From a bacterium (GTDB lineage: Bacteria; Patescibacteriota; Minisyncoccia; 2-01-FULL-47-10; JBBIMT01), in assembly GCA_037443185.1 (NCBI GenBank), contig JBBIOV010000003.1:5458-69457 (forward strand): 64,000 nucleotides of DNA. The letters run 5' to 3'. The first letter of the stretch is position 1. Each line of letters starts with the position of its first letter. The position numbers and the translations under genes were made by a program. This document shows, piece by piece, positions 5,006 through 55,161 of this stretch. The notes beneath the pieces were generated by a model, which was not told the DNA's origin, did no database searches, and saw nothing but the letters and a program-made list of their open reading frames with translations.

Positions 5006-6130
5006 ATGAAAGTAGCTTTAGTGCATGATTATTTGACGCAATTTGGCGGAGCGGAACAAGTGTTAAAAGCGCTATGTGAAATATTCCCTGAAGCGCCAAT
5101 TTATACTCTGATATACGATGAACAGAGAACGCACTATGTTTTTAAAAATACAAAAATAATCTCATCTTTTATTCAAAATTTACCTTTTTCGCGACGCCAC
5201 CATCGTTTCTATCCGTGGCTGATGCCAATTGCAATAGAAAGTTTTGATTTGTCAAAATATGATTTAGTTGTATCAGACTCAGCCTCGTTTGCCAAAGGCA
5301 TAATTACGCGGCCTCAAACTTTACATATTTGTTACTGTCACACTCCATTGCGTTATATATGGACTGATTCGCAAAGAGCCAACCTGGATTTTAAAAATTT
5401 CCCTTTTGCCTCTTTAATTATTCCTTATTTTCAGCATTATTTAAGATTATGGGATTTTGCTGCGGCGCAGAGAGTTGATTATTTCATTGCTAATTCCAAA
5501 AATGTCAGTCAAAGAATTAAAAAATACTACCGCCGAGATTCAGAGATAATATATCCACCAGTGCGAGTTTTGGAGATACAAAATAAACTTAAAAAAATAG
5601 AAAAAAAAGAAAAGCCTTTTCAAGATAAATATTTTTTGATTGTATCTAGACTTTTACCTTATAAATCCGTTGATATAGCTATTAAAGCATTTAAGGCTTT
5701 ACCTCAAGAAAATTTAATAGTGGTCGGCGGAGGAGCTCAATTAAATTATCTTAAAAAAATAGCGCCCAAAAATGTTTTTTTTGTCGGCGAAATACCTTTT
5801 GAAAAAATTGCCCCGTATTACGCTTTTGCTAAGGCTTTAATTTTTCCTCAGGAAGAAGATTTTGGTATGGCGGCGGTCGAGGCGTTGGCTTGTGGTCTTC
5901 CAGTTATTGGTTATAATCGTGGCGGTATAAAAGAAATTATAAAAGATAATGAATCTGGAATTTTATACGATGAGCAAAACGAAAAATCACTGTTCCAGGC
6001 AATAAAAAAATTTTTAGATAAAAAAGTGAAATTTAACAAAGAAAAATTAATGAAAGAAGCTCAACAATTTGATGAAGGAATATTTAAAGAAAAAATAAAA
6101 AACTTTATTCAAAACTTGTATAAAAAGTAA
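5006..6130 (+). CDS. Glycosyltransferase family 4 (GT-B, group 1)
   Basis: N-terminal MKVALVHDYLTQFGGAEQV and a C-terminal E-x7-E region (FPQEEDFGMAAVEALACGLPVIG) typical of GT4 enzymes. Confidence 0.75.
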   Translation: MKVALVHDYLTQFGGAEQVLKALCEIFPEAPIYTLIYDEQRTHYVFKNTKIISSFIQNLPFSRRHHRFYPWLMPIAIESFDLSKYDLVVSDSASFAKGIITRPQTLHICYCHTPLRYIWTDSQRANLDFKNFPFASLIIPYFQHYLRLWDFAAAQRVDYFIANSKNVSQRIKKYYRRDSEIIYPPVRVLEIQNKLKKIEKKEKPFQDKYFLIVSRLLPYKSVDIAIKAFKALPQENLIVVGGGAQLNYLKKIAPKNVFFVGEIPFEKIAPYYAFAKALIFPQEEDFGMAAVEALACGLPVIGYNRGGIKEIIKDNESGILYDEQNEKSLFQAIKKFLDKKVKFNKEKLMKEAQQFDEGIFKEKIKNFIQNLYKK

Positions 6131-7142: not shown

Positions 7143-8507
7143 ATGGAAATATTTTTAAAAGACATAAAATTGCCTATGTTCAAGAGAGTGCTAAAAGAAA
7201 AATATTGCTTTTTGATTTTTTTGATTTTTTTGACTACTATTTCTTTTAATTTTCCTGGGAAAATTTTTGCTTTAACGCGCGAAGAGCTTGAAGAAGAGTT
7301 AAAAAAAATTGAATTACAAATAAAAGAATACGAAAGAGAACTTGTTAAAACTCAAACTCAAAAACAAACTTTAATTAACACAATTAATCAGTTAAAAAAA
7401 GAACAAGAAAAAATTTCGCTTCAAATACGATCAACGAATTTGCAAATTAAAAAATTAGATAAAGAAATTGCTTCAGTGGAGAAGTTAATAAAAAATTTAT
7501 TGGAAAAAATTAATACTTTAAAGAACGATGTCTCGGGAATTATTCGCGTAATGTATGCTCGTGACAAGATATCTTTGGTGGAACTTTTCTTAACATCTAA
7601 CAGTTTTTCATCTTTTGTTTCAAAATCTGAAGCGTTAAAACAATTGTCCCAAAAACTCAATCTCGTTTTAAAAGAAGTTAAAAGGACAAAAGAAGAACTG
7701 GAACAGAAGCGTCAAGAACTTGAATCTAAACAAAATGACAAAAAAAATCTTTTAGCGATTCAAATTTTGCAGAGTCAAAATCTTCAATTTAAAACCGCTC
7801 AGCAAAATCAAATCTTAAAAGAAACGCAAGGCAAAGAAGCTAAATACCAAGCTTCTATCGCTGATTCAAAAAAACGCGCTCAGGAGATTCGAAGTCGTAT
7901 TTATGAACTTTTGGGAGTTAGCAATCAAATTACCTTCGGGGAAGCTGTGGAAATTGCTAAATGGGCGGAAAGTTTAACAGGGGTGCGCGCCGCTTTGCTC
8001 TTGGCAGTGTTAACTCAAGAGTCAAATTTAGGAAAAAATGTCGGGACTTGCAATCGACCAAGCGATCCACCTTCCAAAAGCTGGAAGGTGGTTATGAAGC
8101 CTGATCGAGATCAAAGTCATTTTTTAGCCATTTTGAATGAATTAAAAATGAATCCTGATGTTACTCCAATATCTTGTCCGATGCGCGATGCAAAAGGCAA
8201 TCAAATAGGGTGGGGAGGGGCAATGGGTCCAGCGCAATTTATTCCTTCAACTTGGGTGTTATATAAAGATAAAATCTCCGCTTTAACAGGTAAGAAACCG
8301 GCTAATCCTTGGAATATTAAAGATGCTTTTTTAGGAGCGGCTCTTTTATTAAAAGATAACGGTGCTATCACTGGTAATCAGGAGGCTGAATGGGCTGCGG
8401 CAATGAGATATTTTTCTGGCTCTACCAATCCTCGTTTTCGGTTTTATGGAGATAATGTGATGGCGATTGCTAAAAAATATGAACAAGATATCAAGGATAT
8501 AAGCTAA
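7143..8507 (+). CDS. Coiled-coil protein with a C-terminal lytic transglycosylase (SLT_2/MltB-like) domain
   Basis: An N-terminal TM is followed by ~250 aa of heptad-rich coiled coil. The C-terminus carries LTQESNLG ... GAMGPAQFIPSTW, the MltB/Slt35-type signature. Confidence 0.55.
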   Translation: MEIFLKDIKLPMFKRVLKEKYCFLIFLIFLTTISFNFPGKIFALTREELEEELKKIELQIKEYERELVKTQTQKQTLINTINQLKKEQEKISLQIRSTNLQIKKLDKEIASVEKLIKNLLEKINTLKNDVSGIIRVMYARDKISLVELFLTSNSFSSFVSKSEALKQLSQKLNLVLKEVKRTKEELEQKRQELESKQNDKKNLLAIQILQSQNLQFKTAQQNQILKETQGKEAKYQASIADSKKRAQEIRSRIYELLGVSNQITFGEAVEIAKWAESLTGVRAALLLAVLTQESNLGKNVGTCNRPSDPPSKSWKVVMKPDRDQSHFLAILNELKMNPDVTPISCPMRDAKGNQIGWGGAMGPAQFIPSTWVLYKDKISALTGKKPANPWNIKDAFLGAALLLKDNGAITGNQEAEWAAAMRYFSGSTNPRFRFYGDNVMAIAKKYEQDIKDIS

Positions 8508-12084: not shown

Positions 12085-12597
12085 TCATCTATCTATAGCG
12101 CTGATGATCTTAGCACCTCCTTTTTGAAGATCATACAGAATCACCCGATGACTTATCGGCTGGAAAAATTTTTTTCCAGCCTTCACCGGTGGCCGTTTTA
12201 TTAAGACATTTATCTTAATATACGACCTCTCAAACAGCCGACCACGATTGATTGGTTTGTTAATCTCGGTTTTAATCTTCACTTCTGCAGGAATAAAAAT
12301 CACCCCCGAATCATCTTCCATTTTCACTGCCACCTCTTCAGATTCTCCGCGAAGATTAAGACGGTTATTATGCCAAGCACCGTCTTTTTCCAAGGAGAAT
12401 TTTCCTATGGTTTCATAGATTATTTGCTTAAGTTCATTAAGCAAAGGATCCTCTGGCCAATTAGGAAGAATTTCAGTCTCAAGTATTAACTTTTTTAGTC
12501 TTTCTAATTCGGTCTGATGACCATTTTGTCTGTCGCCAACTTGCGTTTGTTGATCTTGAGCAAGCGCCATTACTATAGGCAATTTAGTCATTTTCAA
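12085..12597 (-). CDS. Hypothetical protein with no confident family. It is compositionally GC-rich (~42-50%) relative to its neighbours.
   Basis: 170-aa ORF. An initial impression of an Hsp20/ACD fold could not be supported by motifs. Local GC is far above the ~29% background. Confidence 0.4.
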   Translation of the reverse strand: MKMTKLPIVMALAQDQQTQVGDRQNGHQTELERLKKLILETEILPNWPEDPLLNELKQIIYETIGKFSLEKDGAWHNNRLNLRGESEEVAVKMEDDSGVIFIPAEVKIKTEINKPINRGRLFERSYIKINVLIKRPPVKAGKKFFQPISHRVILYDLQKGGAKIISAIDR

Positions 12598-44132: not shown

Positions 44133-44648
44133 TCATCCTCCTATAGAAATGTTAGAAATTTTGAGCTTGGTAATGCCCTTATTGCGAAAACCCAAAATTT
44201 CAGCCGCTGCTTCCGAAAGATCGAAGTCTCTTCCGGAAACATATGGTCCTCGATCCTTGATAACAACCGAAATGCTGACACCTTCAGAGTTTGTTAGTTT
44301 TACGATTGTTCCAAGAGGTAAACATTTATGAGCCGCAATCATTGGATTAAATCGATTAAACGGCTCACCGTTTGCCATAGGTAGACCTTGAAAAGACGCA
44401 CCATACCAACTTGCAACAGCAATTCCTGTGGTATAAGGACGGATCTTCAAAATCTGACCTATGTAAATCAGATTAGGGTTTTTAATCTTGTTTAACGAAA
44501 CAATATCTTTTATTGAAGTTCCGAAACAGCGAGCAATTGACCAAAGCGTATCGCCCTTTTTGATTTTGTAACTTACGAGTCCATCTGACCCAAAGACCAA
44601 AAAACATAAAGAGAGACAGACAACGACAAAAAGAACTACAAATCTCAT
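44133..44648 (-). CDS. LysM + RlpA-like (DPBB) lytic transglycosylase family protein
   Basis: Signal peptide, a LysM domain (YKIKKGDTLWSIARCFGTSIKDIVSLN.IKNPNLIYIGQILKI), then the RlpA barrel (ASWYGASFQG..MANGEPFN....AAHKCLPLGTIVKLTN..NGVSISVVIKDRGPYVSGRDFDLSEAAAEILG). The gene is GC-rich (~43-48%). Confidence 0.7.
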   Translation of the reverse strand: MRFVVLFVVVCLSLCFLVFGSDGLVSYKIKKGDTLWSIARCFGTSIKDIVSLNKIKNPNLIYIGQILKIRPYTTGIAVASWYGASFQGLPMANGEPFNRFNPMIAAHKCLPLGTIVKLTNSEGVSISVVIKDRGPYVSGRDFDLSEAAAEILGFRNKGITKLKISNISIGG

Positions 44649-51770: not shown

Positions 51771-51866
51771 GTTTAACTACTTTTGCTGTTTAAGCATAAA
51801 TTACTGTATAACTGTCAAGATAAAAGCTTAGTAGATAAAAATTCGCTAATTTTTATAATGTTTTTT

Positions 51867-52430
51867 ATGAATCTTATTTTTGGCCTTGGCAATTCCGGAA
51901 AACAATATGAAAAAACTCCGCATAACGCCGGCTTTTTAGTTTTGGACCAAATTGTTAAGATTTTGGATCTTGGCACTTTCAAAAAAAAGTTTGCCAACTC
52001 GTTTTTTATAAAAACAAAATATCAAGGTAAAGATTTTATTTTAATAAAACCATTAACTTATATGAATAATTCCGGTTTAGTAGTGCTAAAGTTTAAAAAT
52101 TTTTATAAAGAAAAAAATGAAAATTTAACGATTATTCATGATGATATTGATTTGCCTTTTGGTTCTTTTAAGCAATCTTTTCAGGCAGGATCAGCCGGGC
52201 ATAAAGGAGTTCAATCGATTATTGATGCTTTAGGCAACAATGACTTTTATCGGTTGCGAATTGGTATTTGCCCTTATCAAAAACCTGACGATTTGGAAAA
52301 TTATGTAATACAAAAAATTCCAAAAGCATATGAGGATATTTTTTTCAAAAGCATTAATAATGCCGCTTATTTTATTCTTGAAAAATTAATAGGCTTTCAG
52401 CGAGTTCTTTCGCGTAAGCCTTCAGGTTAA
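51867..52430 (+). CDS. pth: Peptidyl-tRNA hydrolase
   Basis: MNLIFGLGNSGKQYEKTPHNAGFLVLD...IKPLTYMNNSG...IIHDDIDLPFGSFK.. The start is set at the internal Met preceding LIFGLGN. Confidence 0.85.
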   Translation: MNLIFGLGNSGKQYEKTPHNAGFLVLDQIVKILDLGTFKKKFANSFFIKTKYQGKDFILIKPLTYMNNSGLVVLKFKNFYKEKNENLTIIHDDIDLPFGSFKQSFQAGSAGHKGVQSIIDALGNNDFYRLRIGICPYQKPDDLENYVIQKIPKAYEDIFFKSINNAAYFILEKLIGFQRVLSRKPSG

Positions 52431-52545
52431 GTGACGGAAATTTCCGGCTTACCCCGAAATTCAAGGGTACTAACCGAGCTTTTAGGAGGGATCACTCGAT
52501 TTTTCCCCACTTACGCGAAAGAACCCACTAAAAGCCATTTTTTGT
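52409..52545 (+). other. GC-rich structured element spanning the pth stop codon (candidate terminator, attenuator or small RNA)
   Basis: A closing helix ttcgcgtaag...cttacgcgaa (10 bp, 52409-52418 with 52510-52519) encloses a palindromic cggaaatttccg hairpin and a taccc/gggta hairpin. It is followed by a ttttttg run at ~52536. Confidence 0.3.
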
Positions 52546-52972
52546 AAAAATATTATAACAATTTTTCTATAAAAAGTCAATACTTATTATTTATTTAAGG
52601 TGTAATTATATAAAATTAAACGAAAACTTCTAGAGACTTGTAGATAAGTTAATCTTTAAAATTTTACTAAGAAAATTAGGCTTTAAAATTATACAATATT
52701 GACGAAATCAAATATTTTTAAAATTTTTTTTTCCACTCATCTAAGTGATCGCAAAAATAGTGGAAAATTTTATTGTAGAATTTACAATAATTTTTATTAA
52801 GGGATTTAAAAAGGCTATCTTTATTTATTGCGCAATTTTTATCTCAATAAAAATCGCTTATATGGGAAAATTAGACTGAATTTTTAAGCAATTTTTATTC
52901 TTTTTGACTGCTTTATTGTTAAATGATTTTTTTGAAAAAAATCGTATTTTTTAGATTAAAAATAAAATAAAT

Positions 52973-53006
52973 AAGGCCGATGTGAATATTCGCACCGGCC
53001 TTATCG
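52973..53006 (-). terminator. Rho-independent terminator of the 53024-54625 gene
   Basis: ataaggccg-(16 nt)-cggccttat is a 9-bp stem. On the minus strand it is followed by tttattttatttttaatc. Confidence 0.55.
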
Positions 53007-53023
53007 GTTTCGTGAAAGAACTA

Positions 53024-54625
53024 CTATGGAATTGTGCCTGCTGGGACATTACCCCAGGTTTCTATCCCGTTTATTTCTGTCCGAACATTGCGGAGTCTGT
53101 ACCCTGCAACTTTTGAACAAGAGAAAATGTTTTCTCCAATCATCTGACAAGTATTTTCATAATTGGCTTTTTGCCCTTGATTCGGATTAACCGAATCAAA
53201 CTGGACTAAAACCAACCAATACACCCTAATACCCTGTAAGCATAATTTGACAACAAGCTCGCCGGCTCGATAAGCGCTACCTTGCTCAGATAGCTTAATA
53301 ACCGGAACAAGGTAGGTGCCTTTATTGGTTTTGGTCAGGCCGTCTAGACAATCAGCTTGATAAGGCTGACTCTTGTTTTTGTTAAAACATCCAAGATCCC
53401 GAATACAAATTCCACCTTCTCCCATTGTTAGAAAATCATAAATCTTAAAAAACCTACTTAAAAATCTATCCAAGATGGCAATTTGGTTGCCAAATTGGAT
53501 TTCAAGGTCGTTGAATTGTAAGTTGAACTGGAGGGCGTATTCTCGTATCGCCCGACGCAGTTGAGCTAACTCATCATTGAGCCTAATAATTTCGGCTCTA
53601 TCGAGCTCGACTTTGCTTGATAATTCTTTAATCTCTGTCAAAATGCCAGAAATTTTAGAATTAATCAAACCGATTTGCCTGTCAAGTTCGTTAAGCCGAC
53701 TATTCTGAACTTTGTTATACTCAAGGGCCAAATTAGCACTCGTTTGCGCCGTTTGCGCAAGCGACTTAGCCTCGCTTGCTGTAGCACTAACAGTTGTTGC
53801 CAACTGCTTAGCGCTTTCAGCAATATCTTTGACGCCATTAAAGGCGCCAAGAAGATAGAGGACACCGCTAAAAGCTAACAATCCGATAAGAGAAAGAAGC
53901 CAAATAACTTTCTTGTCCCACCCGTGATCATTACTTCTGTCTCTACTATCATCAATAGATGTTCCTTCTGTTTGTGCAGCGCTAGAGACTACTTTATGTA
54001 TTTCTCCTATTTTCTCAGCAAGGCCGTCAATCTTTTGACCTTGCTTATTGATAGCTTCAGAAAGAGGCTTGATAGCCTCTTTAAAACCCTCTCCAATGAT
54101 TTTTCCAAGTTTGTCAAGTTGCCCAAAGTCATCATCTTCGGTAGTTTCGGTCGCCGGTATCTCAGGATGCTGCGCATACCGCTTCTGCATTTCCTCTTGC
54201 GTGGCTTTTTCTAGGTTAGTTGCAGCAACAGTTTTGTCGACTTCTTTCAACTTTTCCTCCTTTTGTTTAATTAACTTCATTCGTTGCCTTGGATTTTCTA
54301 AAAGTCTTTTTTGGCTCTTGGTTAGTCTCTTGGTTAGTTGAGTTGATGATCGTGCTTGTGACGAGCTAACGCCTTTCTCAAAAAACTCAGCAGAGTGGGC
54401 GACTCGTTTAAAATTATCCAAATGAAGCCTTAGAGTATCTAATTGACATTCTGAAATTTCTTGGTCATTTGGGAGATAAACGTGAGTCCTGAACCCTTTC
54501 TTTTTGGCTTCATCGATAATGCGCTGATACTCAGAAATCTGCTCAATTATCTTTTTTTTCTCTTCCTTTTCTTTTGATTCATTCTTATATTCCGTTTTGT
54601 CTTGATTCATAATAATATTGTTCAT
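53024..54625 (-). CDS. Hypothetical bitopic membrane protein of anomalously high GC (~45-50%). It has an N-terminal cytoplasmic K/E-rich coiled coil, one TM, an extracytoplasmic coiled coil and a Cys-containing C-terminal globular domain.
   Basis: 533-aa ORF with a strong SD (aaggaggaaagg-ATG). One TM (VIWLLSLIGLLAFSGVLYLLGAF) at ~aa 240. Heptad repeats flank the TM. The C-terminal ~150 aa carry six Cys (GGICIRDLGCF...ADCLDG...KLCLQG...NTCQMIGENIFSCSK). No recognisable family. Sampled 60-nt windows give 50% GC against 25% in the neighbours. Confidence 0.5.
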   Translation of the reverse strand: MNNIIMNQDKTEYKNESKEKEEKKKIIEQISEYQRIIDEAKKKGFRTHVYLPNDQEISECQLDTLRLHLDNFKRVAHSAEFFEKGVSSSQARSSTQLTKRLTKSQKRLLENPRQRMKLIKQKEEKLKEVDKTVAATNLEKATQEEMQKRYAQHPEIPATETTEDDDFGQLDKLGKIIGEGFKEAIKPLSEAINKQGQKIDGLAEKIGEIHKVVSSAAQTEGTSIDDSRDRSNDHGWDKKVIWLLSLIGLLAFSGVLYLLGAFNGVKDIAESAKQLATTVSATASEAKSLAQTAQTSANLALEYNKVQNSRLNELDRQIGLINSKISGILTEIKELSSKVELDRAEIIRLNDELAQLRRAIREYALQFNLQFNDLEIQFGNQIAILDRFLSRFFKIYDFLTMGEGGICIRDLGCFNKNKSQPYQADCLDGLTKTNKGTYLVPVIKLSEQGSAYRAGELVVKLCLQGIRVYWLVLVQFDSVNPNQGQKANYENTCQMIGENIFSCSKVAGYRLRNVRTEINGIETWGNVPAGTIP

Positions 54626-55161
54626 CCTTTCCTCCTTTTTGCTTGTTGTAGCTGTAACCTAACCTGCTTTGTTTAACGCTCCTTGTCCTCAATAATCTCA
54701 TGATTGACTTTTCTGTTTTTCTATCTTCTCTGTTTTTCTTGCGGGACCATATCCCCTCCTTCTTTAATGTAATTTGAATGTTAAAGAACTTTAAGATGAA
54801 ATTTTATAATTTTTTTTAAAATAGTCAATAGGTTAAGTATCAAGGTCGGGCCTCGGTGTCAATTAAAAGGATAAACATTATTAAAAATGAGACCCAAAGA
54901 CGATGTAAATATTTTTTTAGTTTTGATTCTTTTTTAATGGTAGTTATCTCTGGTGTTTCTATGTTTAAATTTGAATCCATATTTTTGTAATACCCTTTCA
55001 AAATTAAACTTCTTAAAAGGATATATTGTTTTAAAAAAGATAATTTTTATGCTCTTAAAATATTTTTTCAAGATTCTTTCTTTAACAATTTATCAACATA
55101 ATTATTAACAAGCGAAGATAAAAGAAATTTAAGAATTTATGATTTTGATTCCAATAATATT

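Follow-up and report, generated by a model that had tools for sequence, protein, structure and literature searches.

The locus described here raises a simple question, namely whether a gene whose base composition lies well above that of its surroundings is a recent arrival in its genome or an old resident, and what a protein of this kind might do. The gene (the target) encodes 533 aa on the minus strand of a 64,000-nt stretch of DNA, which we call the window (contig JBBIOV010000003.1 of assembly GCA_037443185.1, positions 5,458 to 69,457 of the forward strand). The window is low-GC DNA (30.3% G+C) with housekeeping genes typical for a bacterium of the ultra-small Patescibacteria (candidate phyla radiation, CPR). 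An earlier description made without database searches, the sequence-only reading, had put the target forward as a prime candidate for a recently acquired factor in host or phage interaction, or for part of a mobile cassette together with the adjacent DUF4258-like gene. Our comparisons instead favour, at a probability of about 0.45, a long-resident type II surface recognition module whose ectodomain has been exchanged by recombination, and not a recent mobile import.

The target gene in related genomes

HMMER, run exhaustively over 1.84 billion cluster representatives (~15 billion proteins), recovered three proteins at E <= 1e-3: the target itself (P0001), a 709-aa protein (P0002) and a 642-aa protein (P0124; E = 1.3e-26). 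P0002 is encoded on a contig of 4.1 kb (L001) that comes from a different run of the same series, and P0124 on a 14.8-kb contig from an unrelated run (L006). The gene order in L001 is gene, spacer, pth, LCP, and its Pth and LCP proteins are 97% identical to those of the window, so L001 is a conspecific strain. The L006 contig reads gene, pth, LCP, DHH, tsaE, Mur ligase, GT4, with Pth and LCP 62% and 64% identical to their window counterparts. The order gene, RNA (a small RNA gene described below), pth, LCP, DHH is common to the window, L001 and L006, and the target is convergent with pth, as are both of its homologues. Upstream of the gene, L006 carries a 208-aa protein and a 1396-aa LTD/beta-helix protein. 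Among other relatives, the more distant L005 (Pth 55% identical) has pth, the RNA gene and mfd, and the contigs L003 and L004, whose Pth is 65-68% identical, extend no more than a few hundred bases beyond pth. The closest named relatives of the window Pth come from metagenome-assembled genomes (MAGs) of Candidatus Wildermuthbacteria, Nealsonbacteria and Portnoybacteria, at 46-48% identity.

The compositional contrast accompanies the gene in all three genomes. At 40.2% GC, the target is the highest-GC 1.6-kb stretch of the window, 4.2 standard deviations over the sliding-window mean; its counterpart in L001 has 40.3% against 28-31% for the neighbours, and that in L006 has 46.1% (42% at third codon positions, GC3) against 31-36% (GC3 28-32%). 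Judged by gene order and sequence, these comparisons show the target to be ancestral at this locus in a small sub-clade of Patescibacteria, where it predates the split between the species of the window and of L006. Recent acquisition, as first proposed, is contradicted by the finding of the same gene, in the same place and with the same offset of about +10 points, in L001 and L006, an outcome of the kind that the sequence-only reading had itself named as refuting. The proposed check for presence or absence gave a divided answer, with the gene present beside pth in these two relatives and absent from L005; because of that absence, a gain at the base of the sub-clade is possible.

The suggested cassette with the DUF4258 gene fares no better. 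There is no DUF4258 gene upstream of the L006 homologue (the L001 contig stops short of that side), and the window copy scores 24.8 bits against a Pfam cut-off of 25 and lies in ordinary low-GC DNA (21.7% GC for the 300-bp segment 55050-55349, which covers most of it). No integrase or transposase was found within ~10 kb, the neighbours between 42.2 and 60.3 kb being housekeeping genes only by Pfam, and the search for att-like or flanking direct repeats, which the sequence-only reading had recommended, returned nothing in the window beyond AT-rich chance matches. As a separate observation, a palindrome of the form ATGGAAGT(GGG/CCC)ACTTCCAT (ATGGAAGTSSSACTTCCAT) brackets the gene in L006, at 5227-5270 and 7452-7470; it has no further copy in the 14.8-kb contig, is absent from the window, and could be a repetitive extragenic palindromic (REP)-like element or a recombination site.

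Searches for a wider family agreed with the original statement that none could be assigned. When 5.8 billion clusters were searched by word index, neither the single protein nor a three-sequence profile found anything but the target and P0002. Pfam, PHROGs, NCBIfam, PADLOC and PDB queried with the single proteins, and PDB queried with the three-protein profile, gave coiled-coil noise only. No relative was found in a scan of GTDB genomes with the LCP neighbour, and no match among JGI metagenome contigs and IMG/VR scanned with the stalk region and a head alignment, among INPHARED phages and PLSDB plasmids by tblastn, or among BFVD structures. Membership of the IcmG/DotF or TraP families (NCBIfam NF038218 and NF033885) was rejected on scores of 19.9 against a cut-off of 200 and of 19.4 and 27.6 against 135. 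Membership of the Lpp/OprI alanine-zipper families (PF11839, NF040598) was likewise rejected: P0002 scored 21.2 against 23.1 and 17.7 against 43, and P0001 had no match. The alanine-zipper matches suggest only a trimer-type, Ala-rich coiled coil. The target represents a new and very small protein family on a known evolutionary theme.

Predicted architecture and replacement of the ectodomain

The coding sequence and the parts of the protein are as follows.

53024..54625, minus strand: target coding sequence, 533 aa (from the list of open reading frames, ORFs; dN/dS 0.12-0.65 against the L001 allele; homologues in L001 and L006).
53909..54625, minus strand: aa 1-239, K/E-rich helical domain, predicted cytoplasmic (AlphaFold2 (AF2) secondary structure and model confidence (pLDDT), alignment; one Cys).
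53840..53908, minus strand: aa 240-262, single transmembrane (TM) helix (VIWLLSLIGLLAFSGVLYLLGAF), with KK just before it (Kyte-Doolittle peak 2.32).
53426..53839, minus strand: aa 263-400, helical stalk, predicted extracellular (AF2 helices 268-399; sub-threshold Alanine_zipper and Ala_zip_lipo matches on the homologue).
53027..53425, minus strand: aa 401-533, beta-rich head with six Cys, ending in ETWGNVPxGxIP; head type A, common to L006 (~10 strands; Cys conservation).

The 533-aa ORF is thus present as originally called, and its description as a coiled coil, one TM helix, a stalk and a six-Cys head is upheld, as a prediction, by AF2 and hydropathy. AF2 places helices, including the TM segment, through aa 399 and then ~10 beta strands; the only confidently modelled part is a helical hairpin at aa 13-84 (pLDDT reaches 87). 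The target has no N-terminal signal sequence, its one hydropathy peak being that at aa 240-262, and a single peak preceded by K/R lies at the equivalent place in both homologues. The six head cysteines (407, 413, 426, 462, 493 and 503) are all C-terminal of the TM helix; the three proteins have 6, 8 and 6 Cys on that side, and one on the N-terminal side. By prediction only, then, the target falls into the type II (N-in) bitopic class, with a single internal TM helix, no cleavable signal peptide and extracytoplasmic features C-terminal only, and we infer an N-in, C-out topology with an oligomeric stalk and an exposed, disulfide-bonded head. The membrane-proximal stalk is Ala/Ser/Thr-rich and alanine-zipper-like, and in P0124 a Pro-rich, TonB-like linker stands ahead of the head. 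Two cytoplasmic modules found in both homologues, one of ~90 aa and one of ~35 aa with LAEALRQxGI, are missing from the window protein.

Comparison with the conspecific strain gave a divergence profile that changes abruptly within the stalk. Synonymous divergence (dS) between the window and L001 is 0.10-0.13 for pth and LCP, 0.54 for target aa 1-115, 0.32 for aa 116-235, 1.8 for aa 236-400 and 1.5 for the head. Along the gene, nucleotide identity in a sliding scan stays at 75-95% as far as about aa 285; from there to the gene end it is no higher than 65%, third-position identity is ~0.3 and synonymous sites are saturated. The 3' flank cannot be aligned with L001 until ~52636, beyond which the promoter of the small RNA, the RNA itself and pth are ~98% identical. 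The resulting block and the identities of its parts can be given as follows.

~52640..53770, minus strand: block replaced between conspecific strains, comprising the stalk distal of about aa 286 together with head, terminator and 3' spacer, ~1.1 kb (third-position identity, dS, flank alignment).
Protein identity, window against the conspecific strain (L001): N-terminus 72%, middle 72%, TM 86%, stalk 64%, head 25%.
Protein identity, window against L006: N-terminus 26%, middle 29%, TM 29%, stalk 31%, head 43%.

The window head is therefore nearer to that of another species (P0124, 43%) than to that of its own (P0002, 25%). All three heads share one Cys scaffold, and are for that reason divergent homologues and not unrelated domains. 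The sequence comparison shows that the replaced block derives from another, anciently diverged allele lineage and that the alleles are far older than the genomes in which they reside; the rest of the target is, by its dS values, moderately older than the genome background.

Our proposed account has the following form. The protein would consist of a helical cytoplasmic domain of ~240 aa, one TM helix, an extracellular and probably oligomeric coiled-coil stalk of ~135 aa, and a beta-sandwich-like, probably disulfide-bonded head of ~130 aa. Going by the divergence profile, the outer module (distal stalk, head and 3' spacer) would have been replaced via homologous recombination between two breakpoints, of which one would fall within the conserved stalk and the second immediately upstream of the small-RNA promoter. 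The head may bind a partner on another cell, such as the host of an episymbiont, or may serve as a phage target; divergent head types would then be kept in circulation among species by diversifying or frequency-dependent selection. The role of the cytoplasmic domain would be to provide an anchor or a coupling within the cell. The suggestion of a surface factor in host or phage interaction is thus a plausible one, and is backed by the strain-level replacement of the ectodomain.

Other sources of head variation were considered and rejected. A diversity-generating retroelement (DGR) target would be expected to have a second copy of some part of the region, and no part of 52431-55161 recurs in the 64-kb window; no reverse transcriptase was seen among the annotated neighbours (42-60 kb, not all ORFs outside this range having been scanned), and the head differences are not confined to adenine positions, which also speaks against a DGR. 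A silent cassette was rejected on the lack of any repeat of the head in the window, and a polymorphic toxin on the homology of the heads, the terminator directly after the stop and the lack of a conserved downstream ORF.

Expression signals, base composition and flanking DNA

The signals around the coding sequence are listed here.

54626..54640, minus strand: Shine-Dalgarno (SD) region AAAAAGGAGGAAAGG, very strong, immediately 5' of the ATG (sequence, SD scan).
54801..54828, minus strand: sigma-70-like promoter TTGACT-16-TAAAAT, 10/12 (promoter scan).
54779..54795, minus strand: 17-mer CTTAAAGTTCTTTAACA with the palindrome TTAAAG-NN-CTTTAA, at the predicted transcription start (identical copy in L006).
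52971..53004, minus strand: intrinsic terminator, a 12-bp GC-rich hairpin (AAGGCCGGTG...CATCGGCCTT) followed by a T-run (sequence, inverted-repeat scan).

The strong SD and strong terminator of the original description are both there, and the stop codon (TAG, 53024-53026) is directly followed by a second TAG (TAGTAG). Considering that a promoter, SD and terminator are in place, that dN/dS is below 1 in every segment and that the homologues have the same architecture, the target ORF is shown to be a real gene under selective constraint, confined to one lineage. The 5' untranslated region predicted from the promoter is ~170 nt long, purine-rich and unstructured (fold z = 0.07). The 17-mer occurs once in the window, and its L006 copy (5318-5334, plus strand) lies in a promoter region that cannot otherwise be aligned. 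Operator and mRNA 5'-end element are candidate roles for it.

Several small features accompany the leader. In its segment 54626-54770 (minus strand), another strong SD (AAGGAGGGG) precedes an ORF of 9 codons, and a separate ORF of 26 codons ends in a stop that overlaps the target start codon (ATGA); the latter has its ATG changed to AAG in L001 and is thus not conserved and probably not coding. Just upstream of the -35 box of the target ends a further small, putative ORF (54840-55001, minus strand) of 53 aa or, when read from its first ATG, 46 aa, whose C-terminal segment (LWVSFLIMFILLI) is hydrophobic. Logan assemblies of several independent runs break within a few hundred bases of the target (window ~54891-55094; ends of L001, L002, L003, L004 and L007). 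For the sample from which the window comes, one contig reaches 68 nt beyond the DUF4258 gene and the following one takes up 266 nt upstream of the target; the join upstream of the target is made only by the MAG assembly.

The excess of GC is real, although smaller than first described: the sequence-only reading gave 45-50% and a difference of roughly 20 points, where we find 40.2% and about 10 points, still the maximum of the window. The recommended codon-usage check bore out the contrast, as the excess is mainly synonymous (GC3 37.1% against 22.4 +/- 3.7% for the 52 other ORFs, z = 3.9; GC at second positions, z = 1.1). Both C- and G-ending codons are up (AAG, GAG, GAC, AGG, CGG, CTC) and TTA is down; translational optimisation was rejected as the source on these grounds, given the rise of C- and G-ending codons alike, AGG and CGG included. 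At the same time, the neighbours shared with L006 are at a saturated dS of 1.2-1.8 against the window, and a neutral foreign signature would have ameliorated over such a divergence, which suggests that something maintains the offset. Moreover, the spacer exchanged along with the head is AT-rich in both strains, which places the anomaly in the coding sequence and leader and not in an imported donor block. Candidate causes are GC-biased conversion associated with recombination, or a trait common to a few SD-led genes of the genome.

On this last point, a recognisable SD (-8 kcal/mol or stronger) is present in 4 of the 54 window genes and lacking in 50, and the three strongest belong to exactly the three genes of highest GC3, namely a LysM/DPBB gene (44133-44648, minus strand), a 170-aa orphan (12085-12597, minus strand), for which no Pfam family was matched, and the target (53024-54625, minus strand), with GC3 values of 0.32, 0.34 and 0.37, the last being that of the target. 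These may form a distinct class of SD-led, GC-enriched genes within an SD-poor genome. A compositional island can thus be an old resident, its GC and codon anomaly inherited with the gene in three genomes, and GC contrast alone should not be taken as proof of recent transfer in AT-rich, reduced genomes.

The AT-rich non-coding island in which the gene was said to sit is only partly borne out. The flanks (593 bp and 536 bp) have 26% GC, which is ordinary for intergenic DNA here (window mean 24.4 +/- 5.8%), and the left one holds an RNA gene. Nor are they the two longest non-coding stretches: by our own ORF list, in which some gaps may contain short genes, three gaps of 666-928 bp and the segment 1036-5005 are longer. 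The latter, ~4 kb with fragmentary ORFs of no more than 107 aa, is the largest ORF-poor region of the window; some of its peptides resemble pieces of an HlyD-like membrane-fusion protein and an ABC-transporter ATPase, which suggests decayed genes or a frameshifted assembly. The genes around the target run xseA, LysM/DPBB protein, tmRNA, smpB, GT4 glycosyltransferase, Mur ligase, tsaE, DHH protein, LCP protein, pth, target, DUF4258-like gene, Gmad2/Germane protein, rmuC, riboflavin kinase and lexA. The pth ORF (51783-52430, plus strand) is listed with a TTG start at 51783; its homologues begin at a Met corresponding to 51867 (MNLIFGLGN...).

The RNA gene of the left flank lies outside the variable block and has two parts.

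52388..52540, minus strand: unannotated structured small RNA gene, ~150 nt, inside the left flank (fold, covariation, covariance-model matches).
52552..52580, minus strand: its promoter, TTGACT-17-TATAAT with extended TG, 11/12, conserved in relatives (promoter scan, comparison).

The RNA folds into a three-way junction closed by a stem of ~28 bp (minimum free energy -74 kcal/mol, z = -9.1), and 14 of its 54 predicted pairs show compensatory changes across five loci. A covariance model finds it after pth in six loci (the window, L001 2622-2774, L003 3221-3373, L004 2880-3033, L005 725-866 and L006 7581-7733), and no Rfam family matches it. It is convergent with pth, its 3' stem being antisense to the last ~12 pth codons (pth 51867-52430; RNA from 52388), and it goes with pth, being present in L005 without the target gene. 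Its conserved 14-nt hairpin loop GAUCCCUCCUAAAA resembles an anti-Shine-Dalgarno sequence and looks like an anti-SD or a mimic of the 16S 3' end. The best predicted partners of the loop are the three SD-led, high-GC3 genes; a specific pairing with the target mRNA was rejected, as any strong SD pairs with the loop and the target ranks 5th of 54.

Competing explanations and known systems

A recently acquired foreign gene or mobile cassette, possibly with the DUF4258 gene and inserted between pth and the Gmad2/Germane gene, would account for the highest GC and GC3 in the window, for a codon shift across the board that includes AGG and CGG, for a strong SD where most genes have none, for the absence from L005 and for the assembly breaks around the target. 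We nevertheless consider it highly unlikely, as place and GC offset recur in L001 and L006 at a divergence where foreign composition should have ameliorated, the upstream neighbours in L006 differ and lack DUF4258, the DUF4258 gene is itself low-GC and under the Pfam cut-off, and there is no nearby integrase or transposase, no flanking repeat and no match in the phage, plasmid, IMG/VR or JGI sets; in addition, because the AT-rich spacer moved together with the head, the donor genome was AT-rich as well. Another rival is a domesticated, phage-derived gene for a membrane-anchored protein resembling a receptor-binding protein, or for superinfection exclusion, with the head co-evolving with the phages of the lineage. 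Phage receptor-binding proteins typically combine a conserved N-terminal anchor with a C-terminal head that can be swapped, and the atypical composition, the strong SD and weak PHROG matches to tape-measure and tail-fibre families on the coiled coil would fit. Those matches, with E values between 7e-4 and 1e-2, lie on low-complexity helices, no phage genes are found in the neighbourhood, and INPHARED phages, IMG/VR and BFVD structures yielded no match, with the limit that phages of this lineage are possibly unsampled; we give this origin a slim chance.

The protein could, on the other hand, be a structural part of the envelope, that is, an envelope-spanning scaffold (acting in division-site placement or wall tethering like MapZ or EzrA, or as a connector like DotF, TolA or TonB) with a head that binds peptidoglycan or other envelope material, its divergence reflecting low constraint on coiled coils and occasional recombination. 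This we regard as unlikely, though it draws on the bitopic N-in design with long helical regions on both sides of the membrane, on a neighbourhood rich in envelope genes (LCP, Mur ligase, GT4, Gmad2/Germane), on weak sub-threshold matches to EzrA, IcmG/DotF, TraP and an alanine-zipper lipoprotein, and on the TonB-like linker of P0124. What it fails to explain is a synonymous divergence 3-15 times that of the flanks and head types that cross species, since low constraint raises dN and not dS; moreover, the family matches all lie far under curated cut-offs on coiled-coil or low-complexity segments, and the family is confined to three genomes where core envelope machinery is usually broadly conserved. 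A one-component transmembrane sensor, with a head that would recognise a ligand outside the cell and a cytoplasmic helical domain that would hold back or free a regulator in the manner of anti-sigma factors or RsgI, seems very doubtful: no sigma factor or regulator gene adjoins the gene in any of the three loci, no anti-sigma, helix-turn-helix, kinase or other signalling domain was detected, and the cytoplasmic domain gains or loses modules of 35-90 aa between alleles, which is unusual for a regulator-binding surface. Its attraction lies in the sizeable and partly well-folded cytoplasmic domain (the hairpin noted above), in a type II topology as in anti-sigma factors, and in the conserved palindromic 17-mer at the gene's own promoter, which suggests regulation.

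The preferred reading, a long-resident recognition module with an exchanged ectodomain, also has points that weigh against it. The family is known from three sequences, and no homology to a protein of known function was found; surface exposure, expression and disulfides are predicted only. The right-hand recombination boundary is out of view, as the L001 contig, which starts within a purine-rich (AGGA)n stretch, reaches only 120 nt beyond the gene on its upstream side. Unusual divergence, with indels, is seen in the cytoplasmic half too, which a pure arms race at the outer surface does not require, and for the GC excess there are candidate causes only. A fuller version of this reading, which we think quite unlikely to be right in all its parts, would make the target a host-recognition (or phage-contested) receptor of a small Parcubacteria-like clade and a new family, with an ectodomain cassette circulating between species at a fixed locus, ongoing gene conversion holding the coding sequence ~10 GC points above the resident genomes, and the adjacent pth-linked RNA possibly acting through its anti-SD-like loop on a few SD-led, GC-enriched mRNAs including that of the target.

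The target, being strain-variable and membrane-anchored with head types that cross species, is a concrete candidate for a specificity determinant or phage target in an uncultured lineage. Host recognition in Patescibacteria is an open question, type IV pili being the only well-studied factor (PMC12206443).

Comparison with known systems points to likenesses of several kinds. IcmG/DotF and IncI1 TraP of type IVB secretion resemble the target in that a TM helix separates a cytoplasmic N-terminus from an extracytoplasmic domain, and are the best NCBIfam matches for both alleles; these matches reach 13.5-27.6 bits against cut-offs of 135-200, the two models fall on different, inconsistent segments, and no other type IV secretion genes are nearby. 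MapZ/LocZ of streptococci is likewise bitopic: its N-terminal domain is cytoplasmic, and beyond a single TM helix it has an extracellular helical pedestal, which a linker joins to a C-terminal binding sub-domain. The likeness is one of architecture only: the sequences are not similar, MapZ serves in division and is conserved and not strain-hypervariable, and nothing ties the target to FtsZ or kinases. In architecture only, too, TNF-superfamily ligands share with the target a cytoplasmic N-terminus, a single TM helix, an extracellular stalk and a compact C-terminal all-beta head of ~130-150 aa.

In evolutionary mode, the Gram-positive coiled-coil surface proteins M protein and PspA offer a parallel, with mosaic alleles that greatly predate the strain background and are maintained at one fixed place in the chromosome, as in the target; they differ in being secreted by a signal peptide, anchored at the C-terminus to wall or choline and variable in their N-terminal part, whereas the target has an internal TM anchor and a variable C-terminus. 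Phage receptor-binding proteins and tail fibres, and variable bacterial adhesins with exchangeable C-terminal heads, are alike in their conserved N-terminal anchor, in head swaps at a coiled-coil or neck breakpoint and in head types found across species. Set against receptor-binding proteins, the target is chromosomal, contains a large cytoplasmic domain as well as an internal TM helix, and shows no sequence or confident structural similarity that we could find. We regard receptor-binding proteins, hypervariable surface proteins, stalk-and-head proteins and MapZ as analogues and not homologues of the target, the first two resembling it in evolutionary mode and the last two in architecture.

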